A stretch of 64,000 bases of DNA from an uncultured Chloroflexia bacterium (lineage in GTDB: Bacteria > Chloroflexota > Chloroflexia > Thermomicrobiales > Thermomicrobiaceae). Shown piece after piece: positions 1 through 61,389 of the stretch (the first letter of the stretch is position 1; each line of letters starts with the position of its first letter). The notes under the pieces were generated by a model that made no database searches, had not been told where the DNA came from, and saw nothing but the letters and a program-made list of their open reading frames with translations. The translations under genes and the position numbers were made by a program. The DNA lies in assembly GCA_963782955.1 (NCBI GenBank), contig CAWALJ010000007.1, positions 44,357 to 108,356 on the forward strand. Reading direction: 5' to 3'.

Positions 1-1035
1 GGAGGTGACAGTCGCGACGTAATAAGCACCCGGTTCCGCCGGTCGAACCGACCGAAGCAGTTGATGCGCGGCTTCGGGATTGCCGGCGTTGACTTCAACG
101 ACTCCACTGTGAACCAGCAGAGACTCGTTCGATGGCTGCACCGCGATCATCTCGCGCAGCAGGGCTTGAACGCGGGATGTGTCGGTCGCCTTGGATTCAA
201 TTGCGGAGAGCAGCGCCGCCGAGGCGTCCCATTGTTCGTTGCTGGCTCGCGTGCACTCGATTACCAACCGAACGACGAGCGCGCGAGCATCACGGGATTT
301 GACTGGAATCGTATCGAGGACGTGCTCGACCTCCGTCGGCTCACCAACTCGAAGTCCCTCACGGGTCAAACAGAATGCCGACTCCAGATTTTCAGGACGG
401 ATCTCGTGCCACTTTCGTGCGAGTTCCAGTGCGAGTCCTGGGTCATCTTGTAGCGTGGCAGCGTCCACCGCGACCGGAAGGTAGCGATCGATCAACTCGA
501 CTCTGGAGGAGGCAAGGAGTGTATGTGCCAGGTGCAGCACGTTGGTGTCAGTCGGGTGGGCGTGAGTCAGGATGCGTTCCGCTTCGACATCGGTGGACGG
601 CCCCTCGAGGCGGCCAGTGGCAAGGCCGATGGCGTCCACGAGCTGGGATGCCGCGTCGGGACACCCGGTGGCCAACAGGAGTTCCGCTTCTCGCACGTAG
701 AGACCAATGGTCGCGGGCTCGTGACTCAACGCGGCCATAGTCAGGTCCAGCGCGCTCACCAGACGACCTCTTGCGATGTCCCGATCGGCAGCGCTCACCA
801 TCCGTGAGATGGTCGCGGGAACAGGGAAATGGCTCGACAGTGGTTGATCGACGACAAACGCTCCGAGGTTGACCGAGGGCGAGGTCGGCGCAATCTGATC
901 AGGTGCTGAAGCCTGCGTGCTCACGGTTTGTCGCGCAGTACTGGAGATTGATCGTGTTTCAGGACCATCCAACGCCTTGGTGGCTCCGTCCTGGGCACTT
1001 TGATTTCGGATGACGGCGTTCATCTGCTCCGCCAC
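1..1035 (-). CDS. hypothetical helical protein, 3' end cut by the window edge
   Basis: Absent from the ORF track because there is no stop in the window. My own minus-strand translation is open from GTG 1035 to base 1 (..MNAVIRNQSAQDG...HQLLRSVRPAEPGAYYVATVTS). GGGAG lies 6 nt upstream of GTG 1035; ATG 1023 is an alternative start. An in-frame TGA lies just upstream of 1035. No family recognised. Confidence 0.6.
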   Translation of the reverse strand, partial: MAEQMNAVIRNQSAQDGATKALDGPETRSISSTARQTVSTQASAPDQIAPTSPSVNLGAFVVDQPLSSHFPVPATISRMVSAADRDIARGRLVSALDLTMAALSHEPATIGLYVREAELLLATGCPDAASQLVDAIGLATGRLEGPSTDVEAERILTHAHPTDTNVLHLAHTLLASSRVELIDRYLPVAVDAATLQDDPGLALELARKWHEIRPENLESAFCLTREGLRVGEPTEVEHVLDTIPVKSRDARALVVRLVIECTRASNEQWDASAALLSAIESKATDTSRVQALLREMIAVQPSNESLLVHSGVVEVNAGNPEAAHQLLRSVRPAEPGAYYVATVTS

Positions 1036-1305
1036 GATCCACTCCCATGTTCAAGTTGACGCCGATCAGGACGCAAGATCGAGCCAGAACAAGCGCTCGA
1101 TCATCGCTGAGGGTATGCGTCGACTGAAAATCGTTCCCTGACGTACGTTGTCGAATGCTTGCCGTTGGTCGGCGACGGTCGTTCCGCCATGACCATGGTG
1201 CGAGCGTCCGTGCTCAGTATACGGACCAGCGTTAGGGATCGTGATAGTACCAAAGTGCGGAAGTTCTGGCCTATTGGCCGCATCCGGGGTTCAAGGCTAC
1301 AGGTG

Positions 1306-2088
1306 TTAGCGCGATCTGAGACGTCCGCGACGCTCGCGGTAATCTTTCGCCTCAACGTAGATGTGCGTGCAGATGGCGGTGTCCTTAATTCGGGAGGCAA
1401 TGCGCGGGTCCATTCGGTCAAGGTCACGGTTGGTCGTAATAATCGTCGGACGCCGCTGGTTGTAGCGATAGTTGATGATCTGAAAGAGTTTCTCCGTCGC
1501 CCATGGAGTCGAGTTTTCAGTGCCGAGGTCGTCGAGGACAAGCAAGCTCGCGTTTCGCACCTCGTTGAATCGACTGTCGTAGGTCGATCCCTGATCGGGG
1601 GCGAATGCCGCACGGAGGTAGTCGAGCAGATCGGGGACGACCGTGAAAAGGGGAAACATGACCTGGCCATGCGCGACATAATTCGCGATCGCTGCTGCGA
1701 GATGCGTCTTGCCGCAGCCAAATGATCCGGTTATCAACAGCCAACCGTCGGGATTCTGGGCATAGGCGAGGCAGAGTTCAAATGCCCGTTGCACACCTGG
1801 TACATTCGGATCGAAATTCTCGAACGTCCAGTCTTCAAGAACGCCAAGCCCGCTTATATCGCCGTAGTCCTGGCTGCGCCGAGCATCGAGCTCACGCTGG
1901 CGACACTGGCAAACGACTGGCTTGCCAAACAGCGGGTGTCCAATCGGCACGTCGACCCGGTAAAAGCCGGCGCCGCCACAGATGGGACAGCTACCGTCCT
2001 CGTTTGAAGAGGGAGGAGTACTTTCCGCGGAGGTACTTCTCCGGTTCGACGAATCCGGAAGCACTCTGATTTCGCCGATACGTCTCAT
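1306..2088 (-). CDS. DnaC/DnaI-like AAA+ helicase-loader ATPase with N-terminal Cys-rich zinc-ribbon-like segment
   Basis: Walker A GSFGCGKTHLAAA and Walker B LLVLDDLGTE. N-terminus has CPICGGAGFY...CQC. Sits directly downstream of the DnaD-like gene and dnaB. Confidence 0.8.
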   Translation of the reverse strand: MRRIGEIRVLPDSSNRRSTSAESTPPSSNEDGSCPICGGAGFYRVDVPIGHPLFGKPVVCQCRQRELDARRSQDYGDISGLGVLEDWTFENFDPNVPGVQRAFELCLAYAQNPDGWLLITGSFGCGKTHLAAAIANYVAHGQVMFPLFTVVPDLLDYLRAAFAPDQGSTYDSRFNEVRNASLLVLDDLGTENSTPWATEKLFQIINYRYNQRRPTIITTNRDLDRMDPRIASRIKDTAICTHIYVEAKDYRERRGRLRSR

Positions 2089-2722
2089 CTCCGCGCCCTT
2101 CGGTCGCCCATCTTTGCAGAATTCGTTGAATATAGCGCCAGTTGCGACGGTTCAAGCTTACCGCTTCGTTGATCGCATCTTCAATCCAGCCGTCAGGATA
2201 GAGCTCAATAGCTTCAACAAGCTGGTCGGCAATCAGCGGCGTCAGCACGCCGATGTTCTGTTCATACAGCCGAAATACGTTCGGACGTTCAACCGCGATG
2301 CGCGTTGGCGCTGAGGATTTGGAATTCCGATAGGGGAAGACGCGTTCGCCGCGAACGAAGGAGTTGAGGACTCGTTGGTTTTCCGGCTCCTTTGGCATGA
2401 GCCAGAATGACTCCTCTTCGCCCTCCTCAACGCAGAGGCGCACAATGGCGTCATGTGCCACCAGAACTTCCACCGCGTGTCGCAGCTCGTCCACCAGATC
2501 TCGGCTGGACCCGGCAAGCCGCACCCCCTCGAGCAGCGGCTGGTCGGCGAATATCTCATCTTCACTGACAAACGGCGCCGACTTGTCAAGTTGGTCGACC
2601 TTCTCATAGATCGTGAGCAGCACTTTGAGGGCCGCAATATCGCGGACCCGCGCCAGGTGACGCTCAAAGAACGACCGCGGAACCGGCACACTCCGGTCCT
2701 GGTCAGATTGCCTGGGATCCAT
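1991..2722 (-). CDS. DnaD-domain replication initiation / helicase-loading protein
   Basis: C-terminal RLYEQNIGVLTPLIADQLVEAIELYPDGWIEDAINEAVSLNRRNWRYIQRILQRWATEG matches the DnaD/DnaB_2 repeat pattern. Sits between dnaB and the DnaI-like gene. Confidence 0.7.
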   Translation of the reverse strand: MDPRQSDQDRSVPVPRSFFERHLARVRDIAALKVLLTIYEKVDQLDKSAPFVSEDEIFADQPLLEGVRLAGSSRDLVDELRHAVEVLVAHDAIVRLCVEEGEEESFWLMPKEPENQRVLNSFVRGERVFPYRNSKSSAPTRIAVERPNVFRLYEQNIGVLTPLIADQLVEAIELYPDGWIEDAINEAVSLNRRNWRYIQRILQRWATEGRGDETYRRNQSASGFVEPEKYLRGKYSSLFKRGR

Positions 2723-5635: not shown

Positions 5636-7038
5636 TCGAAATGCCAGCTCGTACCGGCTGGCGTGTCCTCCAGCCGGACACCCAAGTTCTCAAGCCGGGA
5701 ACGAATGGAGTCGGCCAGGTCCCACTGCTTTCGCTCGCGTAGCTGTTGGCGTACGTCGAGTAGCATGGAAACGAACGGTTCGATATCGCCACTGGCATCT
5801 TTGCGCGATGCTGTGAGAGTCAAGCCGAGGACGCCTGCGAGGCGTTTCAGATTCGCCTGGGCGAAGGAGACGGCTCCAGTCGGCGCGCCGGCATCCTCCT
5901 CTCGGTTGATGGCGCGCGCCAGCTCGAACAACGCCGCCAACGCCATGGGCGTGTTGAAGTCGTCGTCCATCGACTGGCAAAACTGCTCTTCAGCCCGTTG
6001 AACCGCCTCGCGAAGTGGATGGTCGGGCTCGGCTTCGGGTACTTGCGTCGAGTCGAAGTCTCGCACTGCCGATGTCATCCGCGCCAAACCACGTCGTGCC
6101 GATTCGAGCGTCTCGTCGTTGAACACGAGCGGATTTCGGTAATGCGAGTTGAGAACCAGGAATCGGAACGCCTGGCCGTCACCGTTTTCTAACAGTTCAT
6201 GAATGCTGACCAGGTTGCCGATCGATTTGCTCATCTTCTCGCCACCGAGTTGTAGCAGCCCGTTGTGGATCCAGAAGTTGGCCATCGGCGCCTCGTGCGT
6301 AAACGCCTCTGACTGTGCGATCTCGTTTTCGTGATGGGGGAAAATGAGATCCGATCCGCCACCGTGGATGTCGATCCGCCCTCCGAGGTGGTGGAAGATC
6401 ATCGCGCTGCACTCGATATGCCATCCTGGTCGGCCAGGTCCCCACGGGCTGTCCCAGGCTGGTTCACCTGGTTTGGCTGCCTTCCAGAGGACGAAGTCCA
6501 TGGCGTCCTCTTTGTTTGGATCGATCTCGATGCGCGCGCCGGGCATCATCTGTTCGATTTCGCGGTGCGAGAGTTTTCCGTACCCCTGAAACGAGTTCAC
6601 CCGATAATAGACGTCCCCATTCGGAGCGGCATATGCATTACCTTCATCGATCAAGCCCTTGACCATATCGATGATCGTGTCGACTTCCTGCGTCGCACGC
6701 GGATAAACCGTCGCTGGCTCGATGTTGAGCTCGGCGGTCTCGGCGTGCCAGGCATCGATAAGTTGCTGCGACAGCGCGTCTGGTGTTGTGCCCATCGTCG
6801 CGGCCCGCTGGATGACTTTGTCATCGATGTCGGTGAAGTTCTGCACGTGATCGACTTGGTAGCCTGAGTACTCTAGGTAGCGCCTGATCACATCGAACAC
6901 GATCGCGGACATGGCGTGCCCGATGTGGGCGTCGGAATAGACCGTCGGTCCGCAGACGTACATGCGCACATGACCTGGTTCGATTGGTTCGAAATCGCGT
7001 TTCTGCCCAGTTAGGGTGTCTGAGATGCGAAGCGGCAT
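5632..7038 (-). CDS. cysS: cysteine--tRNA ligase
   Basis: MYVCGPTVYSDAHIGHA (HIGH motif) and KMSKSIGN (KMSKS motif). Start set at MPLRISDTL (ATG 7038, AAGGAGA SD) rather than ORF-track 7125. Confidence 0.93.
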   Translation of the reverse strand: MPLRISDTLTGQKRDFEPIEPGHVRMYVCGPTVYSDAHIGHAMSAIVFDVIRRYLEYSGYQVDHVQNFTDIDDKVIQRAATMGTTPDALSQQLIDAWHAETAELNIEPATVYPRATQEVDTIIDMVKGLIDEGNAYAAPNGDVYYRVNSFQGYGKLSHREIEQMMPGARIEIDPNKEDAMDFVLWKAAKPGEPAWDSPWGPGRPGWHIECSAMIFHHLGGRIDIHGGGSDLIFPHHENEIAQSEAFTHEAPMANFWIHNGLLQLGGEKMSKSIGNLVSIHELLENGDGQAFRFLVLNSHYRNPLVFNDETLESARRGLARMTSAVRDFDSTQVPEAEPDHPLREAVQRAEEQFCQSMDDDFNTPMALAALFELARAINREEDAGAPTGAVSFAQANLKRLAGVLGLTLTASRKDASGDIEPFVSMLLDVRQQLRERKQWDLADSIRSRLENLGVRLEDTPAGTSWHFE

Positions 7039-7195
7039 TCGGCTCTCCTTATTCACAGTCAATCGCTTCGATTCGTGAATCGTCAAGTGATCAAGTCCGA
7101 CGCGCGAACCGTCGAGCGAGATCAAGCCCGCAGTACAGGAGTTCTGCTCGTGTGCCGAGCGTCATGGGATTCGCAGACGGCAACAAGGCGTACTG

Positions 7196-7215
7196 CGTTC
7201 GCGTATGGGCGAACG
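7196..7215. promoter_or_regulatory. palindrome CGTTCGC-N6-GCGAACG in the cysS upstream gap
   Basis: Read directly: cgttcgc gtatgg gcgaacg. The same 7-nt arms recur at 60908-60928. Confidence 0.4.
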
Positions 7216-7478
7216 AATCGCGAAAGTGTCATTGAGTTAGCGAACCGGAGTGGCGATCGTGAGGGAACGCCGCTAAAGGAGACGCGGCTGTGATTTGGGT
7301 GAGCTGGATTGTGAGACAACATCGGGCGCCAGACTCGCATCGGTACTCCGGTCGGGCTCAATCACGGGAATGACCATCCATGACGCAGCATTCGGAGGGG
7401 ATACCGTGATTACCGGCATCCCCTTCGGACAGGAGCAAGATACTCGAATTTGGCGTGCTCGAAAGCCGTCAAATGCGA

Positions 7479-7867: not shown

Positions 7868-10612
7868 TTAGACCGGCTCTAGTTCATCCCAATTCGGGCC
7901 GACCGATTGCTCGACCGCCAGCGGAACTTCCAGTTCGATCACGTTTTCCATGATCTGCTTCGCCAGCGTCGAGATCGCCTCGACTTCGGACCGTGGCAGC
8001 TCGAACAGGAGCTCGTCGTGCACCTGCAGCAAGATTCGTCCGCGCAGATTCTGTTCTTTCAGCGCCTTGTGCACCTGAATCATCGCGATCTTCATGATGT
8101 CCGCGGCCGATCCCTGTAGGGGCATGTTGATGGCCATGCGCTCTGCCGCCAACCGGACGTTGAAGTTGGAAGAGGTTATCTCGGGCAGATAGCGGCGGCG
8201 GCCGAACATACTCTGAACGTAACCCTGACTTGCCGCTTCCTGCTTGGTTCGGTCCAAGAACTCGCGAACGCCCGGCAGTCGCGCCATGTAGCGGTCGATG
8301 AACTGCTGCGCTTCCGATCGGCTCATTCCGGTATCTCGTGAGAGCCCGAAGGCCTGCATCCCGTACATGATGCCGAAGTTCACCGTCTTGGCGACGCGCC
8401 GCATGTCTGACGTCACGTCCTTGATATCCACGCCAAAGACATCGGCGGCGGTGGCGGAGTGGATATCCTGGCCATCACGGAATGCCTTCAGCAGTGTCTC
8501 ATCTTCGCTGAGGTGCGCCATCAGCCGTAACTCGATCTGACTGTAGTCGGCGGAGAGAAAGACGGCGTCTTCGTCCCATGGACGTCGACCCGGTCGATTA
8601 TCGGCGATGAACGCGCGTCGGACGCTACGCCCGATTCCGGTGCGTACCGGAATATTCTGCAGGTTTGGATCGGTGGAACTGAGTCGGCCCGTCGCCGCGA
8701 TCGTTTGGTTGTAGGAGGTATGTACCCGCCCGGTTTTCGGATTCACCTGTGCCGGCAACGCGTCGACGTAGGTCGATTTGAGCTTCAGAAGTTGCCGATA
8801 CTCCAGAATCGCTCCAACCATCGGGTGGGCGTCGCGCAGACCCTCCAGCACATCCTGGCTCACCGAGAAGCCGGTCTTGGTGCGCCTCCCAGTGGGCAGG
8901 TTCAAATCTTCAAACAGGATCTTCCCCAGCTGTTTGGTCGAGTTGATGTTGAACTCTTCCCCGGCATGGTGGTAGATCTCCGTCTCCAGTTCACCGATCT
9001 GGCTCGAAAGCTGGGAGGAGAGTTGCTCGAGGAACTCGACGTCAACGGCAATGCCCGTCTGCTCCATATCGAGCAATACGTCGATCAACGGAAGCTCGAT
9101 GGTCTTGAACAGCTCCATCTGTCCGCGCTCTTCAAGCTCAGGACCGAGCTGGTTGACGAGCAAGTAGGTAGCCTCGACGTCCCCGCATGCGTAATCGGAC
9201 GCTTGTTGCACATCGGTTTGGTCCATCGTGATCTGCGATCGACCTCGGCCGATGAGCTCGGTAATCTCGGTCATCTCGATACCTAGGCGAGTGAACGCAA
9301 GTTGTTTCAACCCGACGGAAGAGTCTCCGAGAAGGTAGGCGGCGATCATCGAATCGAAATCGATGTGCGGTCGGACGAACTTCGCTTGTTCTACGACGAG
9401 CGCATCGTATTTCCCGTTGTGCGCGTAAAACGCGGGTTTGGCATTCGCAAAAATGGGGGCAAACGCCTTGCGAAGATCCTCCTCGTCCAGTTCGCCGTCG
9501 TGATTTACGTGACGAACCGGTATGTAATAGCTGCGCTCGGGCGATGTAGCGAGAGCTATCCCGACCAGATCGGCGCGCATCGGATCGGTGTCGGTAGTCT
9601 CGACGTCAAATGCGACCGCGTCCGATGCCTGCATTTCCTTCACCAGGCTATCGAGCTGTGAACGCTGGGTGACCACGGTTCGGGTTGCCTCGACGATCTC
9701 TGGGGGCGGGGAGGACTCGTCAGCGGCATCAGGTAGCTTAGTTACGAGGGTGCGGAATTCGAGCACACGGAACAGTTCGATGACGTCGTCACGGTTGAAG
9801 TCGGCGAGCAGGCAGGCATCCAGGTCAATGTCTAGGTCGACGTTGCGCACGATCGTGGCCAGCTCGCGACCCGCGAGTGCCTGATCGTAGTTCTCTCCGA
9901 AGGAGTTTCGCGCGCGGGTGGGCGTTATCTCGTCAACATGCTCGTGCATCTCTTCGAGGGATGTAAACCTCTGAATCAGTGCAGTTGCCGTTTTGGCGCC
10001 GATTCCCGGTACTCCGGGGATGTTGTCGGACGTGTCTCCTACCAGAGCCTTGTACTCGGGAATTCGCTCGGGATCGAATTGATAGCGATCGATGACGGCC
10101 GCTCGGTCGTAGACACGGTAATCGCCAAATCGTTGACGGCCAGGGAGGATGATTTGAACGTCACCGTCGACCAGTTGCAGCAGGTCGCTGTCGCCAGTCA
10201 CGATGAGCACTTGCATCTTCTTGCCACCAGCCAGCCTGGCAATCGTGCCGATAACGTCGTCGGCTTCGAAACCTTCCTTGGTGTAGACCGGAATGTTGAG
10301 CGCTTCGAGCACCGCGAAGATCCGATGCATCTGGTCGCGCATGCTGTCCGGCATGGGTGCGCGTTGGGCCTTGTACCCTTCGAAGGCCTCATGACGAAAT
10401 GTCTTGCCGACATCAAAGCTCACCACGACATAATCCGGATGATGTTGACCAATGGCGTCGAGGAGCATGGACGTGAATCCGAAGACCGCGTTGATCTGTT
10501 CGCCTGATGACGTGGTCATGGTCTCAGGCAGGGCATGAAAGGCTCGAAACGCGAGGCCGTATCCGTCGACGAGCATGATCGAGCGACCAGCAGGGTCGGT
10601 GGCTGATTTCAT
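7868..10612 (-). CDS. polA: DNA polymerase I
   Basis: 914 aa. 5'-nuclease N-terminus (LVDGYGLAFRAFHA), a proofreading-exonuclease-like middle domain, pol motif A DYSQIELR and motif C QVHDELLFE. Confidence 0.95.
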   Translation of the reverse strand: MKSATDPAGRSIMLVDGYGLAFRAFHALPETMTTSSGEQINAVFGFTSMLLDAIGQHHPDYVVVSFDVGKTFRHEAFEGYKAQRAPMPDSMRDQMHRIFAVLEALNIPVYTKEGFEADDVIGTIARLAGGKKMQVLIVTGDSDLLQLVDGDVQIILPGRQRFGDYRVYDRAAVIDRYQFDPERIPEYKALVGDTSDNIPGVPGIGAKTATALIQRFTSLEEMHEHVDEITPTRARNSFGENYDQALAGRELATIVRNVDLDIDLDACLLADFNRDDVIELFRVLEFRTLVTKLPDAADESSPPPEIVEATRTVVTQRSQLDSLVKEMQASDAVAFDVETTDTDPMRADLVGIALATSPERSYYIPVRHVNHDGELDEEDLRKAFAPIFANAKPAFYAHNGKYDALVVEQAKFVRPHIDFDSMIAAYLLGDSSVGLKQLAFTRLGIEMTEITELIGRGRSQITMDQTDVQQASDYACGDVEATYLLVNQLGPELEERGQMELFKTIELPLIDVLLDMEQTGIAVDVEFLEQLSSQLSSQIGELETEIYHHAGEEFNINSTKQLGKILFEDLNLPTGRRTKTGFSVSQDVLEGLRDAHPMVGAILEYRQLLKLKSTYVDALPAQVNPKTGRVHTSYNQTIAATGRLSSTDPNLQNIPVRTGIGRSVRRAFIADNRPGRRPWDEDAVFLSADYSQIELRLMAHLSEDETLLKAFRDGQDIHSATAADVFGVDIKDVTSDMRRVAKTVNFGIMYGMQAFGLSRDTGMSRSEAQQFIDRYMARLPGVREFLDRTKQEAASQGYVQSMFGRRRYLPEITSSNFNVRLAAERMAINMPLQGSAADIMKIAMIQVHKALKEQNLRGRILLQVHDELLFELPRSEVEAISTLAKQIMENVIELEVPLAVEQSVGPNWDELEPV

Positions 10613-10860
10613 TATGAGAAGGCTCCTCTCTGCGTCTGTGAATTATAGCCGGGACTCCTCTTGCAGTCGCCCGAATCCTCCAGGATGCGTGATGTACTGA
10701 CCGATGATCGCGTCTGCCGTCTGCGCGATGGCAGTCCGTTCGTGTTGACGCGCCTGGATTGTGGAGGAGAAGCCATCGAACCAACTTTCGATCAACATAC
10801 ATCCAAACCAGAGAAACCCACGTATGGTGGGTAGAGAAACCTATCAAATCCGCGTGAGAT

Positions 10861-41065: not shown

Positions 41066-41254
41066 ATGAGTGACCAGGAGACCAAACCGATCAGTGATGA
41101 ACTGCTCGAGATTCTCGCATGCCCAGTTTGCAAGACTCCGGTGCATCTCGAGGAGAACAAACTCGTCTGCGAGAAGTGCGGTCGGCGATATCGAATCGAG
41201 GACGGTATTCCGATCATGCTGATCGACGAAGCTGAGATGCCCGAGCAACAGTAG
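41066..41254 (+). CDS. Trm112/UPF0434-family zinc-ribbon protein
   Basis: LLEILACPVCKTPVHLEENKLVCEKCGRRYRIEDGIPIMLIDEA. AAGGAG SD upstream of ATG 41066. Confidence 0.85.
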   Translation: MSDQETKPISDELLEILACPVCKTPVHLEENKLVCEKCGRRYRIEDGIPIMLIDEAEMPEQQ

Positions 41255-41262
41255 AACGAAAA

Positions 41263-41276
41263 CGAACGAATGTTCG
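41263..41276. promoter_or_regulatory. perfect Cheo-type SOS box CGAAC-GAAT-GTTCG upstream of ruvB
   Basis: Read directly. Lies 53 nt upstream of the ruvB ATG and just upstream of the extended -10 TGgTATACT (41285-41293). Confidence 0.6.
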
Positions 41277-41284
41277 TATCGAAT

Positions 41285-41293
41285 TGGTATACT
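41285..41293 (+). promoter_or_regulatory. extended -10 element TGgTATACT of ruvB
   Basis: Read directly. 36 nt upstream of the ruvB ATG. Confidence 0.5.
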
Positions 41294-41328
41294 CGAGGTA
41301 TTGCAGTTCGATGTGATCCGGTCGAGGG

Positions 41329-42375
41329 ATGATGAGCACGCGCGTGGTTTCTGGCCGAATGCGAGACGAAGATAGCCCGGTTGAAGGCAACCTGCGTCCA
41401 AGGCGGCTTGCCGAATACATTGGGCAGGAGAAAGTCAAAGAGGGGCTGAGCATTGGTATCCAGGCCGCCCAGGCCCGGGGCGAGACGCTCGACCACGTGC
41501 TCCTCTACGGACCACCTGGCCTGGGCAAGACGACGTTGGCGACCATCATCGCTGCCGAGATGGGCGTCAATCTTCGCGTCACGGCAGGCCCGGCCATCGA
41601 ACGTGCAGGAGACGTCGTCTCGATTCTGACCAATCTCAAAGCTGGTGACGTCCTCTTCATTGACGAGATTCACCGTCTTAACCGAGTTGTCGAGGAGGTT
41701 CTCTATCCGGCTATGGAGGACTACGCCGTCGACATAATCCTGGGCAAGGGGCCAGCTGCGCGTACCATGCGACTGAACCTTCCACGATTCACGCTCGTCG
41801 GTGCGACGACTCGTCTGGCTCTGATGACTTCTCCGTTGCGCGATCGCTTCGGTTCGATTCACCGGCTTGACTTCTACGACCAGACCGCGATGGAGCATAT
41901 CGTCACGCGTTCGGCGAGCATTCTGGATGTCGCCATTGATCGAGAAGCGGCGAGCGAAATCGCGTTGCGCTCGCGCGGGACGCCCCGCGTTGCGAACCGT
42001 TTGCTCAAACGGGTACGTGATTATGCCCAGGTGAGAGCGGAGGGCGACATAACCGTGAAAGTCGCCCGACAGGCGCTGGATCTGCTCGAGATCGATGATC
42101 TGGGGCTCGACGACGTCGACCGGCGGATTCTACTGACCATTGTCGACAAGTTCGATGGTGGGCCGGTCGGGGTAGACACGCTCTCGGCGGCGACCAGCGA
42201 AGAGACTGACACGATCATGGATGTCTACGAGCCGTACCTGATACAGCTTGGATTCTTGCAGCGAACACCCCGCGGCCGGATCGCGACCCGACGTGCTTAC
42301 GCGCATCTCTCGATCCCGTTTCACGAGCGGCCGGACGATGCGCAGACGAGCTTCTTCGACCTGCCAGAGCGCTAG
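41329..42375 (+). CDS. ruvB: Holliday junction branch-migration helicase RuvB
   Basis: [13 protein letters not shown], Walker [10 protein letters not shown], Walker [10 protein letters not shown], and [15 protein letters not shown]. Confidence 0.95.
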
Positions 42376-46299: not shown

Positions 46300-47517
46300 T
46301 CAGCCGCGGCGCAAAGCCCGCAATCCGTCGAACAGCTTGTCGAGGTCTTCCTCGTTGTTGAAGTAGGCGCACGAGATGCGAACCCCAGTCGGGACCTGCA
46401 CACGTCGCTGAATGACCTGGAAGTCGTTCCACAGCCGCTGAGCGAGTTCCACTCCGTCCCAGCCCTCGAAGCCGAACGTCACCAGGCCGGAACTGTCACC
46501 CCACGCTATCGGAGAGTAGAGACTTACCCCGGGCTCGGCAGTCAGCCGTCGCTTCAGTTCGTCGCTCAGAGCCGAGCAGTGAGCTTCAATGCTGGACCAG
46601 CCCAGTTGAGCGAGATAATCGATCGAGCTTGGAAGAGCTGCGTACGTATGCCAGTTTCTCGTGCCAAACTCAAATTTTGACGCCGTCTCGGCGAACGTCC
46701 AATCTGCCTCACCTGGGTGTGCGCCCAACAATTGGCGATCGAAGCGCGGAGACACAGAGCCGTCGCCAACGTGAATGGGATCGACTGACGGGAGCGCCTC
46801 GGGAGAGAGGTAGAGAAATCCTGTTCCTTTTGGCCCGGCGAGCCACTTGTGGCCATTACCGGTCATGAAGTCGCACCCGATATCGCCAACATCAAGGCGG
46901 AATTGGCCGAGCGACTGCGCTCCGTCGACCATGCTTCGGATGCCACGCTCGCGACAAATGGCGCAGATTTCCTTTACTGGCAGACGCTGTCCGGTTTCGC
47001 AGGAGACGTGGCTGATAATAACGATACTGGTATTCGGCTTCAGCGCCGCTTTGAACGCTTCGAGCGTCTCTTCCGGTGTCGAGCCAATGGGGAACATCTC
47101 GAGTTTGGCGCCACCACGACGCTCAGCAGCTGCCCACGGCAGGATAACCGCCGGGTGCTCCTGGTCGGTCGTCAGCGCAACCGTTGATGGATCCAGCCTC
47201 AGTCCAGCGGCCACGAGATTCACGCCGTCGGTCGCGTTTCGCGTCAAGGCTACACTCTCGGGACTGGCGCCGATGAGAGCCGCCAGCGCTGCTCGTGCTT
47301 TCTCATAGCCCTCCTGCGCCTCAGGTTGGGCCACGTGACCACCGATCTCGTAGCGAGAGATCGCCGCCAGATGCACGTCCAGCACCGGTCGCGGCATGAT
47401 GCCGACTGTGCCGGTGTTCAGGTACGTCACCTCACGCAATATTTCCAGGTTCTGTCGCAGATATTCGATATCCAACGGACTGGTGGACTCCATCGGTCGC
47501 TCCCCTCGGGACGGCAA
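46300..47517 (-). CDS. class V aminotransferase-fold PLP enzyme (cysteine desulfurase / epimerase-like)
   Basis: 405 aa. NGHKWLAGPKGTGFLY carries the PLP lysine; ISHVSCETG is also present. Confidence 0.8.
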   Translation of the reverse strand: MPSRGERPMESTSPLDIEYLRQNLEILREVTYLNTGTVGIMPRPVLDVHLAAISRYEIGGHVAQPEAQEGYEKARAALAALIGASPESVALTRNATDGVNLVAAGLRLDPSTVALTTDQEHPAVILPWAAAERRGGAKLEMFPIGSTPEETLEAFKAALKPNTSIVIISHVSCETGQRLPVKEICAICRERGIRSMVDGAQSLGQFRLDVGDIGCDFMTGNGHKWLAGPKGTGFLYLSPEALPSVDPIHVGDGSVSPRFDRQLLGAHPGEADWTFAETASKFEFGTRNWHTYAALPSSIDYLAQLGWSSIEAHCSALSDELKRRLTAEPGVSLYSPIAWGDSSGLVTFGFEGWDGVELAQRLWNDFQVIQRRVQVPTGVRISCAYFNNEEDLDKLFDGLRALRRG

Positions 47518-47646
47518 ATTCTGCCGTCATCGACAATAGAGCGACAGTGTACGACGGAAGGCTGGTTACATGTCAAAAGAGGACGACGGGTGATCAATTC
47601 GGAGGACGGAAAGCACGTGACCGGGTGTCGATCACGTGCTCTGCGT

Positions 47647-47874
47647 TCAATCCTCGTAGACGGAAAGCAGGTCACAAACCTGTTCGTAGTCGCGCAGCAA
47701 GCGACGCCAGACCTCTTCCCAGTTGGCGACATCTTTGCCGTCATCGAGGGCTCGTTCGATCTGAGCGTAACCATCCTCGAGTCGAAGGTAGAGGTTGCTG
47801 GCCCTTCGCTCCAGTCGTGCTCGATCTCGGACGGACCGAATCGGCTGATTGATGGTTCTCATAGTAGCGGCCAT
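47647..47874 (-). CDS. 75-aa helical acidic protein of unknown function
   Basis: Lies 35 nt downstream of the Rad52-like gene on the same strand. Plausible composition (NLYLRLEDGYAQIERALDDGKDVANWEEVWRRLLRDYE). No clear SD. Confidence 0.45.
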   Translation of the reverse strand: MAATMRTINQPIRSVRDRARLERRASNLYLRLEDGYAQIERALDDGKDVANWEEVWRRLLRDYEQVCDLLSVYED

Positions 47875-47909
47875 GATGTTTACACCAATCCGATCAATTC
47901 ATGCCACTG

Positions 47910-48509
47910 TTATGATGCGGCGTGCGCGGCTTCCCGTCGCTGCTGCAGGCGCTCAATCAGCGCTGAAGCGTCGCGACGGCGGAGTTTATCGACCGAAGTG
48001 CCGAACATCTCCTGCGATTCTCCGTTCAGTTCCTCTTCGGAAAGCCCGACTTCTCGAGCCATAGAAAAGAGGAACTTGATCTGACGGTCGGTCGCCGCGG
48101 ACTGGTCCGGATTTGCTCGGTTGCGACGCGACCGTGTTCGATTCAGGTCGATTGGCGAATCGACGACGCGATTGTCGGTTGCTCCGAACTCGAAGTCCGG
48201 GCAGAATTGCGTTCCATAACCCAACGCCGCCAACGCTCTGCCAAGCGACTTGGTCTCAGCCTTTTCGATGTAGTCACCGAAGTCAGCTGCCTCTTCGCTG
48301 CCCCAGCCGGTGGCGCTTCCACCGTCGGGGATCTCGACACGCGCCTTAAAGACAGCGGTGTTTCCGTCATGCGCTACGAGCTCGGTCTGAATGCTTCCAT
48401 CTGGATGTTCATTGCGAAACCAAACGAGCCGCCACTTGACCTCGAGATAGTCGGCGCCACTGATGCGGGTCAAATAGTTCTTGGGCTCGAACGCGGTCAT
48501 CTCAGTCAT
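47910..48509 (-). CDS. candidate Rad52/Sak/DdrA-like single-strand annealing protein with a C-terminal helical module
   Basis: DYLEVKWRLVWFRNEHP...AVFKARVEIPDGG..GWGSEE...YIEKAETKSLGRALAALGYG resembles the Rad52-family core, from memory of its consensus. AGGAGA SD. Confidence 0.5.
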   Translation of the reverse strand: MTEMTAFEPKNYLTRISGADYLEVKWRLVWFRNEHPDGSIQTELVAHDGNTAVFKARVEIPDGGSATGWGSEEAADFGDYIEKAETKSLGRALAALGYGTQFCPDFEFGATDNRVVDSPIDLNRTRSRRNRANPDQSAATDRQIKFLFSMAREVGLSEEELNGESQEMFGTSVDKLRRRDASALIERLQQRREAAHAAS

Positions 48510-48545
48510 CCCAACGTCTCCTGTCTTCCAAACGCAGACCGCAAG

Positions 48546-48561
48546 TAGAACATCAGTTCTA
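48546..48561. promoter_or_regulatory. LexA-type palindrome TAGAAC-ATCA-GTTCTA at the predicted +1 of the Rad52-like gene promoter
   Basis: Read directly. GAAC-N4-GTTC core with 6-nt perfect arms. Confidence 0.55.
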
Positions 48562-48566
48562 GAATT

Positions 48567-48595
48567 ATTCTATTGATTTGCTGATGGAATGTCAA
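48567..48595 (-). promoter_or_regulatory. near-consensus sigma70 promoter TTGACA-17-TAGAAT
   Basis: Minus strand reads ttgaca ttccatcagcaaatcaa tagaat. Confidence 0.6.
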
Positions 48596-48695
48596 CTAGC
48601 GGAGGACGTACCGCGGTACTGATCGTGGCAGAATATTGTCAGACTCTCGGGCTGGATGTCCGCGCTCCGCGTTCACCGGCCAATCGGGCTCCATA

Positions 48696-48704
48696 TGCTA
48701 TAAT
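48696..48704 (+). promoter_or_regulatory. extended -10 element TGcTATAAT upstream of dnaN
   Basis: Read directly. About 45 nt upstream of GTG 48747. Confidence 0.5.
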
Positions 48705-48746
48705 GCGCAGACGATTACGTGTACGAACACAGAAGGGGTAGCACTG

Positions 48747-49889
48747 GTGCGGCTCTCCTGCCAGCAAGATGAACTACAAAGAGCCCTGGGCCACGTCTCG
48801 CGTGCAGTGGCGAAGAAATCGACGCTTCCGGTGTTGGGCAACGTCCTGTTCACGACCGATCAGGGGCGGCTGCGACTGTCGGCGACCAATCTCGAGATTG
48901 CCGTGACGGCGTGGATTGATGCCGAGGTGGCTGACGAGGGAACGATTACGCTTCGCTCCGACCTGTTAACGGACTTCATTGCCAGCCTGCCCAACGAGAC
49001 AATCACCATAGATTTGGATCCGAAGACTCTCAGCGTCGCGCTCACCTGCGCGCGTTCCAAGGCGCACATCAAGGGCATTCCGTCCGAAGATTTCCCAACG
49101 CTGCCGAGCATCGAGGAGATGGTCCCGACCGGTCGCATCGATCCTGGAACATTGCGCGACATGATTGGGCAGGTTGCGTTTGCTGCCGCTACCGATGACA
49201 GTCGACCGGTTTTGGCGGGAGTGCAGGCCGAGTTTTCTGGGCCGAACCTGACGCTCGCGGCCGCTGACGGTTTTCGCCTGTCAGTGCGACAGGCGGAGCT
49301 GAGCGAGCCGGCTCATGAAGAAGTATCGGTAATCGTCCCTGCTCGCGCTCTGCAAGAGCTTTCGCGCATCATCTCTGATCAGTCCGATCCGATCGATCTG
49401 CTCGTGACTCCGAATCACAGCCAGCTGCTTGTCCGCTCCGGTCAGATCGAGTTCCTCAGCCGCCTGATTGACGGACATTTCCCGGATTACCATCAAATCG
49501 TTCCGCGTCAATATGGGACGCGCCTGGTGGTCGACCGGGATCAATTCCTCTCCGCGGCTCGGCGTGCCAAGCTCTTTGCGCAGTCGAGCAACGACGTCGT
49601 TCGATTGCAGCTCAAGCCCGGTTCGGACGAACTCGATCCTGGCTGCGTCAATATCTCGGCACAGGCAGCCGAGACTGGCGACAACGAGGATGTGATCGAC
49701 GGGCGCGTAGAGGGCCCTGAGTCGCAGATCGCGTTCAACGGGCGATACCTGACCGACGTTCTTTCGGTCATGCGCTCCGGCGATGTGGCCGTTGAGATGA
49801 CTGGCCCGAATGCCGCGGGAGTGCTGCGCTCGGCGGGTAATGAAGAATTCACCCACGTCATCATGCCGATGGTCATTGGCAATAGCTAG
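48747..49889 (+). CDS. dnaN: DNA polymerase III beta sliding clamp
   Basis: VRLSCQQDELQRALGHVSRAV is a typical N-terminus. Three-domain length, with LVPNHSQL-type and MPM motifs near the C-terminus. Start set at GTG 48747. Confidence 0.92.
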   Translation: MRLSCQQDELQRALGHVSRAVAKKSTLPVLGNVLFTTDQGRLRLSATNLEIAVTAWIDAEVADEGTITLRSDLLTDFIASLPNETITIDLDPKTLSVALTCARSKAHIKGIPSEDFPTLPSIEEMVPTGRIDPGTLRDMIGQVAFAAATDDSRPVLAGVQAEFSGPNLTLAAADGFRLSVRQAELSEPAHEEVSVIVPARALQELSRIISDQSDPIDLLVTPNHSQLLVRSGQIEFLSRLIDGHFPDYHQIVPRQYGTRLVVDRDQFLSAARRAKLFAQSSNDVVRLQLKPGSDELDPGCVNISAQAAETGDNEDVIDGRVEGPESQIAFNGRYLTDVLSVMRSGDVAVEMTGPNAAGVLRSAGNEEFTHVIMPMVIGNS

Positions 49890-50025: not shown

Positions 50026-51228
50026 ATGAGACTTCAGCGCCTCGATCTGGAAGAATTTCGCGTCTATCACCGGGCAGAGATTGAAGTGCCCGCGGAAGGC
50101 TTGCGTCTGTCTGGCCCCAACGCGAGCGGCAAAACGAGCCTGCTGGAATCGATCTATCTGCTGGCAACCACGCGCTCTCCGCGCGCCTCGCTAGAACGTG
50201 AGCTCATCAATTGGGAGAGTAATCAAGAGTATGGGCTGGCGCCTTTCTCACGTGTGACGGCCCGCATTGATCAGGGTGACGGATTCGAGCAATCCATCGA
50301 ACTGGTGCTCACGACCGAGAACGCGCGGCCGAACTCGATCCGCAAGCGAGCGAAAATCGACGGACGGCCTTGTCGCATTAGCGATTTGGTCGGTACGCTC
50401 AAAGTGGTGCTCTTCTCACCGGAAGACCTGAATCTTGTGCTCGGCTCACCCTCGGTGCGGCGTCGTTATCTTGACATCAGCATCAGCCAGCTTGATCGAA
50501 CCTATCTTCGGTCGCTCAGTCGCTATGGCAAGCTCGTTGAACGACGTAACAGTTTGCTCAAGGATCTGTCGGCGAGTGGTTCCGGACGCTCGGCTGATGA
50601 AGAACTCGCCTACTGGGACGAGGAATTCACCACGTATGCTGCCTATCTCCTTGCGGCCCGCTACCGGTATCTCGCGGGTCTGAGCGAGGATGTGTCTGTC
50701 GCTTTCAGTCAACTGAACGGTCACAACCTGCAATTGCAGGTGAACTACCTCGGAACGGTGGATTTACCCGCGTCCCAGCTTCAACGGGTCGAAGATGAGA
50801 CGATGGCGGAAGCTCAGCCACTGCTCGCTCGCGCGATTGGTAGTCAGCTCCGTGAGCGCCGTGGCGAGGAACTGCGTCGCGGTTCGACGGTTCTCGGTCC
50901 GCATCGGGACGACTTCACTTACAGCATTGATCGACGCGATCTGTCTGCTTTCGGCTCTCGCGGCCAGCAGCGACTCGCAGTGGTGGCGACGAAACTGGCC
51001 GAGCTCGCGCAGGTGGTCGCGATTACGGGTGAAGCGCCACTCCTCTTGCTCGACGACGTGCTTTCCGAGCTCGATCCGGCGCACCAGGACGGATTGCTGT
51101 CGGTTCTCGGTGACACCGGCTGCCAGATCATCGTAACCGCGACCTCGCCTGACTTGCTTGAACACCCCGCTCTGGGTCGACTGGCAGCGGCCGAAGTCCG
51201 AAACGGCAACGTAATTCTCAATTCCTGA
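50026..51228 (+). CDS. recF: DNA replication and repair protein RecF
   Basis: FRVYHRAEIEV, Walker A GPNASGKTSLLE, signature SRGQQRL and Walker B LLLDDVLSELD. Confidence 0.93.
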   Translation: MRLQRLDLEEFRVYHRAEIEVPAEGLRLSGPNASGKTSLLESIYLLATTRSPRASLERELINWESNQEYGLAPFSRVTARIDQGDGFEQSIELVLTTENARPNSIRKRAKIDGRPCRISDLVGTLKVVLFSPEDLNLVLGSPSVRRRYLDISISQLDRTYLRSLSRYGKLVERRNSLLKDLSASGSGRSADEELAYWDEEFTTYAAYLLAARYRYLAGLSEDVSVAFSQLNGHNLQLQVNYLGTVDLPASQLQRVEDETMAEAQPLLARAIGSQLRERRGEELRRGSTVLGPHRDDFTYSIDRRDLSAFGSRGQQRLAVVATKLAELAQVVAITGEAPLLLLDDVLSELDPAHQDGLLSVLGDTGCQIIVTATSPDLLEHPALGRLAAAEVRNGNVILNS

Positions 51229-60001: not shown

Positions 60002-60682
60002 CTAGCTTCCTTTCGTTTCGCCGGTGATTGTCTTCGTGGCCCGTTCCAGCACGCGTTCGGCAATCTCCGCCGCGGATCTCCTGATGTTCGCTACCTCCTG
60101 TCTCAGTGAGGCAGCCTGTTCATCTTCGACGTAGGCGAGGTTGGCGTCAACGGTGAGCAGCGCGGCTTCGATCGCGCCACGCGCAAGTGCCGCCGCGGCA
60201 CCCAGATCACTGATGGTGAATCGGGAGGCGAACTCCAGGCCGCTTTCAATGCATTGCATAAAAGTCAACGCCTCGCGACTAAGCTCCAGCGGGGCTTCTG
60301 CCGCGCGTACGTACGACCGTTGCAGCATCGACTGCGCCTGCTCCGGATCGTTCGGTTTCACTGCTTTCGCCTCGCGCTGCGTGGCGACCAGTTCGGAGAA
60401 AGCCGCCACGTCTCGGTCGGCCGCCCCTTCAAAGGAATGGCGGTGCCGCTCGACATTGTCGAGAAGCGTCGCGATTTCCTGGCGATGATCGGCCAACGAC
60501 TTACGCCTCACCGCCAGGCGCAGTACCAGCTCGGCCGACGCGGCAGCGCCAGCCAACGTGGTACCAGCGATCACACCACCCCCCGAGTTGTAGTCGGTGC
60601 TGGCCACCTGGGCCACAACATCTCGTACCGGTAGATCGATCAGGTCCGGCAGGGCCGCCTTGTCTGGCGTGTTTTCGGTCAC
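60002..60682 (-). CDS. cyclodeaminase/cyclohydrolase-family protein (FTCD C-terminal domain, FchA-like)
   Basis: SGGGVIAGTTLAGAAASAELVLRLA matches the family pattern. Start set at GTG 60682 (GGAG SD), because an extended -10 (60740-60748, minus strand) lies inside the longer ORF-track call. Confidence 0.75.
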   Translation of the reverse strand: MTENTPDKAALPDLIDLPVRDVVAQVASTDYNSGGGVIAGTTLAGAAASAELVLRLAVRRKSLADHRQEIATLLDNVERHRHSFEGAADRDVAAFSELVATQREAKAVKPNDPEQAQSMLQRSYVRAAEAPLELSREALTFMQCIESGLEFASRFTISDLGAAAALARGAIEAALLTVDANLAYVEDEQAASLRQEVANIRRSAAEIAERVLERATKTITGETKGS

Positions 60683-60739
60683 CGTTCTGGGCTCCACTTC
60701 AGCCAAATCGCGCGCGAATGCGCAGAAACACAACTCATC

Positions 60740-60748
60740 GAGTATAGC
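60740..60748 (-). promoter_or_regulatory. extended -10 element TGcTATACT for the fchA-folD-fhs operon
   Basis: Reverse complement of agtatagca. About 58 nt upstream of GTG 60682. Confidence 0.45.
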
Positions 60749-60835
60749 ACCGCTCTGACATTTCTCAGTCCACCCGGACACTCCTGTCTCGATGTTGTAT
60801 TGAAGATGTCGCGAACATGCCATGTTGACAGCTGA

Positions 60836-60853
60836 TTGTGGATAACGTGGATA
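60836..60853. promoter_or_regulatory. two contiguous DnaA-box-like 9-mers TGTGGATAA CGTGGATAA
   Basis: The first is a perfect complement of TTATCCACA; the second has one terminal mismatch. Also readable as a perfect tandem GTGGATAAC x2. Confidence 0.5.
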
Positions 60854-60856
60854 ACA

Positions 60857-60885: not shown

Positions 60886-60907
60886 TGTTGGCAATGAGGA
60901 AATGTGT

Positions 60908-60928
60908 TCGTTCGCTGTTGGCGAACGA
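60908..60928. promoter_or_regulatory. palindrome TCGTTCGC-N5-GCGAACGA in the XRE regulator 5' UTR
   Basis: 8-nt perfect arms between the -10 and the AGGAGG SD. Same core as 7196-7215. Confidence 0.5.
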
Positions 60929-60948
60929 GGCAGTCAGGAGGTTGTCCG

Positions 60949-61389
60949 GTGGACATCAGAGACGGATTCGTTGACCTGGGGTTCGCTCAACTGCTCAAGC
61001 AATACCGGGAGGGATCGCGCATTTCTCAGAGTCGACTTGCCGAGTCGTCGGGTTTTGACCACAGTTACGTGAGTCGACTTGAGAGTGGTCACCGCATGCC
61101 AACTCGCGACGCAGTGGTGAAGTTCGCGGATGCGCTTGGGTTGGTTCCTGCCGAGCGAGATAATCTGCTTGCGGCCGCTGGCTTTATGCCGCAGCGGGTT
61201 GAGAGCTTGCTTGCCGAGGAGCCGATTCTGACCGAGGTCTTCCGGTTGCTGCAAAGCCGGGATGTTCCGGAAGGTGTTCGGGAGGATGTCCGTCAGATGC
61301 TGCAGCTGGTGGTGCGGCAGGCGCGACTGGCGGCACAGGGTTGGCCGACAGGGCCTGGCACGACGCCAGACACCATCGCGGCCGATTAG
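60949..61389 (+). CDS. XRE-family helix-turn-helix transcriptional regulator
   Basis: ISQSRLAESSGFDHSYVSRLESGHRMPTRDAVVKFADALGL. GTG 60949 lies 7 nt after AGGAGG. Confidence 0.8.
   Translation: MDIRDGFVDLGFAQLLKQYREGSRISQSRLAESSGFDHSYVSRLESGHRMPTRDAVVKFADALGLVPAERDNLLAAAGFMPQRVESLLAEEPILTEVFRLLQSRDVPEGVREDVRQMLQLVVRQARLAAQGWPTGPGTTPDTIAAD

Follow-up and report, generated by a model that had tools for sequence, protein, structure and literature searches.

The question raised by this locus is whether a palindrome lying over the promoter of a small gene acts as an SOS-type operator, and what kind of protein it controls. The gene encodes a 199-aa protein (47910-48509, minus strand) and lies next to dnaN, from which it diverges, in a 64,000-nucleotide (nt) stretch of Chloroflexota DNA, hereafter called the window, whose first letter is position 1. 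A preliminary description of the same DNA had proposed that a LexA-type operator drives here a Rad52-like annealing-protein candidate together with a 75-aa partner, as a domesticated cassette. The comparative analysis described below leads us to regard it as rather probable that these two open reading frames (ORFs) form a DNA-damage-inducible operon of the Thermomicrobiales host core genome, subject to LexA-type repression and with a Rad52-fold product of phage origin.

A conserved operator overlies the promoter of the 199-aa gene

The promoter, palindrome, ribosome-binding site and start codon described for this gene were all located on the minus strand at the positions originally given. The -35 hexamer TTGACA (48590-48595) and the -10 hexamer TAGAAT (48567-48572) are separated by 17 nt, and five bases past the -10 stands the perfect palindrome TAGAAC-TGAT-GTTCTA (48546-48561; the spacer reads ATCA on the plus strand), which is of the Cheo/SOS-box type. 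Its GAAC core begins 7 nt past the -10, over the predicted transcription start. The Shine-Dalgarno sequence AGGAGA (48517-48522, minus strand), read directly like the -35, lies 7 nt ahead of the ATG at 48509. This promoter is the sole sigma-70-like site in the 1.6 kb between positions 47300 and 48900, and it agrees with the consensus at 11 of 12 positions.

In the window as a whole, GAAC-N4-GTTC is not enriched: two copies were seen against 1.4 expected, and 41 one-mismatch copies against 32 expected. From the window alone a function of the palindrome therefore cannot be demonstrated, and its footprint across species was used instead. A single scan of a one-genome-per-species collection provided 80 loci from different Thermomicrobiales species, 1.246 Mb in total, in which the orthologs have 53-84% protein identity to the 199-aa protein of the window. 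Its closest homologs, among the matches listed, bear names such as Nitrolancea, Sphaerobacter, Thermomicrobium and Thermomicrobiales, which assigns the window to a Thermomicrobiales (Chloroflexota) genome.

The box GAAC-N4-GTTC was searched for within 220 nt upstream of each ortholog and was present in 80 of 80 loci, in perfect form in 73 and with one mismatch, always at the same place, in the other seven, all of which are Thermomicrobium-type. A promoter of the form TTGACA-16/17-TAnnnT was found at every locus, matching at 10-12 of 12 positions in nearly all of them. When the window was counted with the 80 loci, the -35 was TTGACA or a one-off variant in 81 of 81 promoters, TAnnnT at 16-17 nt was kept in all the orthologous loci, and in 80 of 81 the box core started 2 to 10 nt past the -10 (mode +7). 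With this spacing, the box covers the predicted transcription start. The proposal of an operator set on a near-consensus promoter is thus borne out, since both elements are kept in 81 of 81 loci.

A 16-nt position matrix was obtained from 91 non-identical sites. The eight core bases were invariant in all of them, the bases flanking the core were A in 84 of 91 and T in 69 of 91, and the 4-nt spacer was variable, with a preference for A-n-A-T. The SOS operator consensus of Thermomicrobiales is TAGAAC-AnAT-GTTCTA. Altogether, 136 perfect boxes were counted in the 1.246 Mb, with 87 upstream of the 199-aa gene, 34 upstream of ruvB and 15 elsewhere. Box density was about 4.7 per kb upstream of the 199-aa gene and about 0.012 per kb in the rest of the sequence, a difference of about 380-fold. 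All but one of the 15 other boxes were background-like, being wholly or largely within long ORFs or devoid of operator-like flanks. This indicates that the palindrome is a conserved operator positioned to block RNA polymerase.

About 12 species have a second perfect box inside the -35/-10 spacer (e.g. L065, L066, L067, L068, L073, L075 and L079, at -18 from the end of the -10), and a few further species carry an extra box upstream of the -35 (L028, L030 and L045, at -50), which could act on the divergent dnaN promoter too. That a near-perfect promoter should carry one or two perfect boxes points to a gene held tightly in check and strongly induced, and the 199-aa gene is probably among the most tightly repressed members of its regulon. 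In the seven Thermomicrobium-type loci (L023, L024, L025, L029, L032, L035 and L037) the left half-site is degenerate, GCAC or GTAC replacing GAAC. The same loci lack the 75-aa ORF wherever the contig permits the check, so that in this clade repression may have been relaxed and the accessory protein lost together.

The 199-aa protein is a PF27148 member with a predicted Rad52-type fold

The peptide motifs that had been quoted for the 199-aa product, GWGSEE among them, are present in its translation. At E<=1e-3 the protein has 5,659 homologs, all of them PF27148 by precomputed annotation; this match was found on the identical database protein and on all 120 best of the 5,659 homologs, and the family is named Slr1353_N by locus annotation. 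When the N-terminal 120 residues were used, 4,395 representatives of 50%-identity clusters were recovered, 2,510 of them below 1e-10, with lengths of 134-423 aa. This range of lengths points to a conserved N-terminal domain joined to variable C-termini. The 199-aa protein gave no match in NCBIfam, in PADLOC or in the local Pfam copy, which is without the PF27148 model; by the PADLOC scan it is not a component of a defence system. The literature searched gave no information on the function of PF27148 or Slr1353.

An AlphaFold2 model of the protein was built from an alignment of 65 sequences and had a mean predicted local distance difference test score (pLDDT) of 78.8 and a predicted template-modelling score (pTM) of 0.52. 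The N-terminal domain (48204-48509, minus strand), with block-mean pLDDT values of 84-93 over residues 21-100, is predicted to contain strands 14-16 and 19-21, helix 24-34, strands 39-48, 51-60 and 64-73, and helix 80-95. Its residues K25, R27, K83, K87 and R91 are invariant. Such a topology is the one stated to be the common core of the Rad52/Redbeta/RecT annealases (PMC11611040), and the predicted domain shows the arrangement expected of the Rad52 superfamily. It is followed by a linker (residues 103-137; 48099-48203, minus strand) that is mostly predicted to be disordered, with a basic second half and pLDDT values below 50 at residues 103-120 and 124-133. The separate C-terminal helical module recognised in the preliminary description was also seen in the model, as three helices (141-153, 158-169 and 178-198) with a pLDDT of about 90; it comprises residues 138-199 and the stop codon (47910-48098, minus strand).

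The Foldseek search of this model against the Protein Data Bank (PDB) returned only Sak, RAD52 or Mgm101 structures at ranks 1-15, with probabilities of 0.93-1.0 and E values from 1e-4 to 1e-2. The Sak structures matched were 8qe9/8pq8, with the Sak protein of phage 80alpha as the best match (E 1e-4), and matches were also obtained with human RAD52 (8rjw/5xs0/1kn0, E 3.5e-3 to 1.2e-2) and yeast Mgm101 (9yi9, E 7e-3). Among predicted viral structures there were 72 matches at E<1e-3, including Sak3, Erf and Rad52/59/22 proteins, one of them fused to a PDDEXK exonuclease. The model supports the assignment of the 199-aa protein to the Rad52 structural superfamily, as a member of no named sequence family of single-strand annealing proteins (SSAPs).

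Similarities of the C-terminal module were weak. They included phrog_987, DUF3072 in 9 of the 65 members, a MarR winged helix-turn-helix in the PDB profile search (E 0.17) and Red-beta's C-terminal domain (6m9k, E 0.25, TMt 0.69). The C-terminal domains of phage annealases are thought to bind the exonuclease and the single-stranded DNA-binding protein SSB (PMC11611040).

The phage proteins Sak (8pq8 and 8qe9, of lactococcal and staphylococcal phages), Sak3 and Erf resemble this case in that PF27148 homologs occur in phage replication and recombination modules, whereas the 199-aa gene is a vertically inherited host gene located by dnaN, has its own SOS-type operator and shows no profile similarity to them. 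With RAD52 and Mgm101 the modelled fold of the single-stranded DNA (ssDNA)-binding and annealing domain matches, but the identity is 10-22%, the 199-aa protein is much shorter and its C-terminus is unrelated. Lambda Red-beta and RecT belong to the same structural superfamily and have the same two-domain logic with a C-terminal helical domain, through which Red-beta binds its exonuclease as well as SSB (PMC11611040). In contrast to their genes, the 199-aa gene is chromosomal, operator-controlled and without an adjacent exonuclease, and the likeness of the C-terminal domains is weak.

The 75-aa ORF and the end of the operon

The second ORF of the putative operon (47647-47874, minus strand) begins 35 nt downstream of the 199-aa ORF and encodes a 75-aa acidic protein (pI 5.1); in the database its start is placed at the ATG at 47862, which gives 71 aa. 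AlphaFold2 predicted two helices (16-44 and 50-74) forming an antiparallel hairpin, with a pLDDT of 83. A relative of this protein is encoded downstream of the 199-aa ortholog in 67 of the 80 loci. There are 25 detectable homologs and no Pfam domain; searches of Pfam, NCBIfam and PADLOC gave nothing, and the fold search gave generic coiled-coil matches only. The reading frame and the core motif DRxRLExRAxxLYLRLEDGYxxIE...W..W..LL..YE are conserved and the differences show a third-position bias, a pattern indicating that the 75-aa ORF is a real gene.

Directly past its stop codon, a strong RNA hairpin (47606-47646, minus strand) is predicted with a minimum free energy of -25.5 kcal/mol (z = -5.6). 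This hairpin has no long U-tract and was not flagged by the scan for consensus terminators. It probably ends the operon.

Proposed mechanism and nature of the activity

According to the mechanism that we propose, a dimeric repressor, presumably LexA, would bind TAGAAC-N4-GTTCTA over the start site and keep the strong sigma-70-type promoter off. DNA damage would bring about RecA-stimulated self-cleavage of LexA, and the promoter would be freed. The N-terminal domain of the 199-aa protein would then oligomerise and bind ssDNA in a groove, and it could either anneal complementary strands, in RecA-independent single-strand annealing and in the repair of forks or gaps, or keep ssDNA ends bound and protected. 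The C-terminal module might recruit a partner, as in phage annealases, and the co-transcribed 75-aa hairpin protein would be an accessory factor that modulates the reaction or recruits partners. The gene itself would descend from a protein of a phage recombination or replication module that became fixed beside dnaN-recF. More tentatively, PF27148 may be an unrecognised branch of the Rad52 annealases, captured from phages and fixed in Thermomicrobiales as a core LexA-controlled SOS gene.

Several observations weigh against this interpretation. The alignment behind the model is shallow (65 sequences, none below 58% identity), the pTM is only 0.52, and the Foldseek TM-scores are modest (0.30-0.47), with domain root mean square deviations of 4.5-5 A over about 100-116 columns. 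No Rad52_Rad22, Erf, RecT or Mgm101/Sak3 Pfam match was obtained at E<=1 with the 199-aa protein or with the 65 family members, and the sequence and profile searches of the 199-aa protein against the PDB found no solved SSAP. The Rad52-like family that had been proposed consequently stands at the level of the fold, through the matches with Sak, RAD52 and Mgm101, but not at the level of sequence. In the profile comparison with human RAD52, hhalign gave a non-significant probability of 0.2%. This alignment sets EKAE--TKSLGRALAALG on the RAD52 helix and the invariant R91 on RAD52 R153, while K152 and R156 of RAD52 are not conserved in it; the residue line-up with the Rad52 helix suggested in the preliminary description was thus reproduced, but only by an alignment lacking significance. 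With regard to the partners, no exonuclease is encoded with the gene. The 75-aa protein was found as announced, 35 nt downstream, acidic and helical, but it is not universal: its ORF is missing in the Thermomicrobium/Thermalbibacter clade, in which no more than about 110 nt separate the 199-aa ortholog from the next gene. This makes it accessory rather than obligatory. With the LexA proteins of B. subtilis and E. coli as queries, tblastn located no lexA, either in the window or across the 1.25 Mb of loci. Finally, DdrA, the closest characterised cellular analogue, protects ends, and annealing is absent from its reported activities (PMC515370).

This last point leads to the best of the alternatives, in which the operon and its regulation are the same and the protein is DdrA-like, protecting ssDNA 3' ends or acting as an auxiliary ssDNA-binding protein with no annealing catalysis. 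The Rad52 homolog DdrA, chromosomal and induced by damage, binds and protects 3' ssDNA ends (PMC515370), one phage relative of the 199-aa protein is annotated as an 'ssDNA binding protein' and no exonuclease partner is encoded nearby; nevertheless, the best structural matches (Sak, RAD52 and Mgm101) are active annealases, and the phage relatives sit where recombinases usually do. The sequence holds nothing that separates protection from annealing, and on balance we regard the DdrA-like activity as unlikely, although it deserves to be kept in mind.

DdrA of Deinococcus radiodurans (DR0423) resembles the 199-aa protein in being a small chromosomal protein with a Rad52-type N-terminal domain, outside a prophage and without a partner exonuclease. 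It is induced by DNA damage (PMC515370). The two differ in that DdrA is a sequence-level homolog of Rad52, whereas the 199-aa protein belongs to PF27148 and matches no Rad52 model; the phylum and the C-terminal module are also different, and only the 199-aa gene is followed by a co-transcribed 75-aa ORF. The control of DdrA is exerted by the RDRM/DdrO-PprI system, RDRM being a 17-bp operator. Here, no Rad52_Rad22 match was found and the operator is the GAAC-N4-GTTC palindrome.

Regulon members and the repressor

A second operator in the window had been reported at the ruvB promoter, and it was confirmed. This box, CGAACGAATGTTCG (CGAAC-GAAT-GTTCG, 41263-41276), is perfect and lies 53 nt upstream of ruvB (41329-42375, plus strand), which was identified by its Pfam match. 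The box recurs at ruvB across species: it is perfect in 33 of 53, and in most of the remaining ruvB loci, including those of the closest relatives of the window, the box at this position carries one mismatch and stands by a TGnTATACT extended -10. In the window (41180-41328) and in the orthologous regions, the ruvB extended -10 TGGTATACT is found directly past the box.

Among the 15 perfect boxes located elsewhere, only one resembled an intergenic operator. This box, AGAAC-ATTT-GTTCT, occurs in locus L043 (958-969), about 57 nt upstream of an impB/mucB/samB (Y-family) polymerase gene (1015-2205, plus strand). On its other side there is a divergent 234-aa ORF without a Pfam match, which could encode an imuA-like partner. 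Besides the 199-aa gene, its most consistent member, the regulon of these organisms takes in ruvB and a translesion polymerase. Judging from the operators, the 199-aa gene, ruvB and the Y-family polymerase gene form a coherent DNA-damage regulon.

The spacer preference seen in the operators resembles the consensus of B. subtilis LexA, CGAACATATGTTCG. In Dehalococcoides, of the same phylum, LexA reportedly binds a GAAC-N4-GTTC box, as the preliminary description also noted. The literature searched contained nothing on a LexA of Thermomicrobia or Chloroflexi. In B. subtilis and M. tuberculosis, LexA binds the motif GAAC-N4-GTTC (PMC3323433). LexA is favoured because the motif equals this LexA box of Firmicutes and Actinobacteria and is also present ahead of ruvB and the translesion polymerase gene; from the motif, the repressor is most probably LexA.

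The regulon shares several traits with the Gram-positive-type LexA (Cheo/SOS) regulon, namely the same GAAC-N4-GTTC core with an A/T-rich spacer, the overlap of operator and promoter, and the presence of boxes at ruvB and a Y-family polymerase gene. Its link to LexA is the identity of the motif, no lexA having been found in the window or the related loci. The core SOS regulon has been described as consisting of lexA, recA, the uvr genes for excision repair and the translesion synthesis polymerases (PMC3323433). This described core is without a gene for a protein of annealing-protein fold, whereas here such a gene is the one most consistently and strongly boxed (PMC3323433).

One may ask whether a repressor other than LexA, either a lineage-specific damage regulator or one of phage type, controls the operon, which might then answer a different signal. 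The failure to detect lexA mentioned above would agree with this possibility. LexA-independent control of damage genes is found in the DdrO/PprI system of Deinococcus. Some other bacteria also govern such genes without LexA, for example through UmuDAb in Acinetobacter (PMC11332147). Nevertheless, the motif found here is the same as the LexA box of Gram-positive bacteria, in flanks and spacer preference as well (PMC3323433), and the regulon partners, ruvB and the Y-family polymerase gene, are classical SOS genes; a repressor different from LexA is thus improbable.

Genomic context and origin of the gene

The phage connection of the 199-aa protein comes from its relatives. The protein matches phrog_27776 at 2e-20, together with phrog_11717 and phrog_23738, all uncharacterised. 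Homologs with about 40% identity over the N-terminal domain are encoded by the Thermus phages P23-45, P74-26, G20c and TSP4, and others by Lactobacillus delbrueckii phages and by a Bacillus phage, in which the match extends through the C-terminal module. The 'ssDNA binding protein' annotation mentioned above comes from one P23-45-type record, in which the homolog has a helicase, a Holliday-junction resolvase and a primase as neighbours. A phage-like island in locus L083 (a contig of Logan SRR28401816) carries a gene (6001-7272) for a 423-aa relative with Slr1353_N at residues 75-189. The same island contains an intein-containing SNF2 helicase, a LexA_DNA_bind-type repressor gene, a Macro-domain gene and an N6/N4 methyltransferase.

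In the window, the 199-aa gene has on one side dnaN (48636-49889, plus strand), named from its position directly upstream of recF and from a typical N-terminal DnaN pattern, with recF (50026-51228, plus strand) following downstream. The true start of dnaN is probably near 48745; its orthologs align from residue 15-38 onward. Divergence of the 199-aa gene from the adjacent dnaN-recF pair is conserved in about 69 of 80 species. The identity of the 199-aa protein (53-84%) runs parallel to that of dnaN and is higher than that of recF. Compared with locus L002, the differences in the 199-aa gene numbered 28, 12 and 102 at the first, second and third codon positions; this third-position bias indicates strong purifying selection, and the GC content is host-like. 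In about 10 species the gene was found away from dnaN, by unrelated genes, and it still has the promoter and the box.

No integrase, exonuclease or phage genes were detected within +/-10 kb, either among the window ORFs or in the comparative loci. The gene is surrounded by dnaN-recF, the 75-aa ORF and an aminotransferase-like gene, and neither the adjacent exonuclease nor the phage context of a Red/RecET-type module was found. A plasmid-borne or otherwise mobile gene was also considered and rejected, as only 2 weak matches appeared among 72,556 plasmids. These results, the synteny in about 69 of 80 species above all, uphold the view that the 199-aa gene is a domesticated core gene and not a prophage remnant.

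In the window, dnaN-recF has no dnaA upstream, and the 199-aa gene occupies that position. A replication origin at the locus was rejected, since there is no turn of the GC skew and no cluster of DnaA boxes; the origin is probably elsewhere.

The usual dnaA position of the gene, together with its conserved divergent adjacency to dnaN-recF, might instead indicate a replication-linked protein tied to dnaN, associated with the clamp or the origin, whose Rad52-like fold would be superficial. This explanation could draw on the lack of a sequence-level link to SSAP families and on the naming of the family after a Synechocystis protein. It is hard to reconcile with a locus devoid of an origin signature, with the species in which gene and box are located away from dnaN, with an operator common to ruvB and the translesion synthesis polymerase gene, and with fold matches that are consistently SSAPs, and we consider it very improbable. 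A reading of the invariant segment TQFCPDFEF as a clamp-binding motif was likewise set aside, as this segment seems to match in position the GNxLGNC...DK of RAD52 past the core helix.

A remnant of a prophage recombination module, with the box as a phage operator for the control of lysogeny, would be in keeping with the homologs in phages and in the L083 island and with the existence of phage SOS boxes, such as those reported for GIL01 (PMC4551915), but it is effectively refuted by the synteny, since in about 69 of 80 species the gene has kept its chromosomal place, flanked by dnaN-recF and by housekeeping genes, with a phage-free neighbourhood, host-like GC content and strongly purifying selection.

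Annealases of the Rad52 type are commonly seen as belonging to phages or eukaryotes, the DdrA of Deinococcus being the odd cellular exception. The literature searched contained no report of a host gene of Rad52 fold controlled by a LexA box and no analysis of the SOS operator in Thermomicrobiales. The comparative data define this operator and three members of its regulon, and they show an entire order keeping a protein of predicted Rad52 fold under what seems to be its tightest SOS operator, beside dnaN-recF. If the proposed operon of host-encoded annealing protein and accessory factor is real, an arm of RecA-independent annealing or end protection would be added to the classical SOS response. 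It would provide bacteria exposed to heat and desiccation with an inducible pathway that parallels DdrA/DdrB of Deinococcus, but with classical SOS wiring. It would also give a first functional handle on PF27148, an uncharacterised family of about 4,400 clusters at 50% identity, and document the domestication of a phage recombination protein. Members of PF27148, including the versions of thermophilic phages, would then be a source of thermostable annealases for recombineering.

Other features of the window

The gene following the putative operon encodes the 405-aa aminotransferase-like protein (46300-47517, minus strand). A TTGACA upstream of it (within 47540-47600, minus strand) suggests that this gene has its own promoter past the hairpin and is outside the operon. 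Its synteny is limited to some lineages, the closest relatives of the window among them, and it was undetected in most loci.

There is no ruvA adjacent to ruvB, and queA is the next gene downstream. The gene located upstream of ruvB ends with the conserved peptide ...IEDGIPIMLIDEAE.

The polA gene of the window (7868-10612, minus strand) encodes a full-length Pol I with 5'-3' and 3'-5' exonuclease domains. It has no perfect box, and only a one-mismatch site is present about 166 nt upstream (10778-10789).

Two abutting DnaA-box-like 9-mers, the perfect TTATCCACA and TTATCCACG, are located at 60837-60854 (minus strand), between the ORFs at 60002-60823 (minus strand) and 60904-61389 (plus strand). 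This pair could belong to a DnaA-regulated promoter or be part of an origin.

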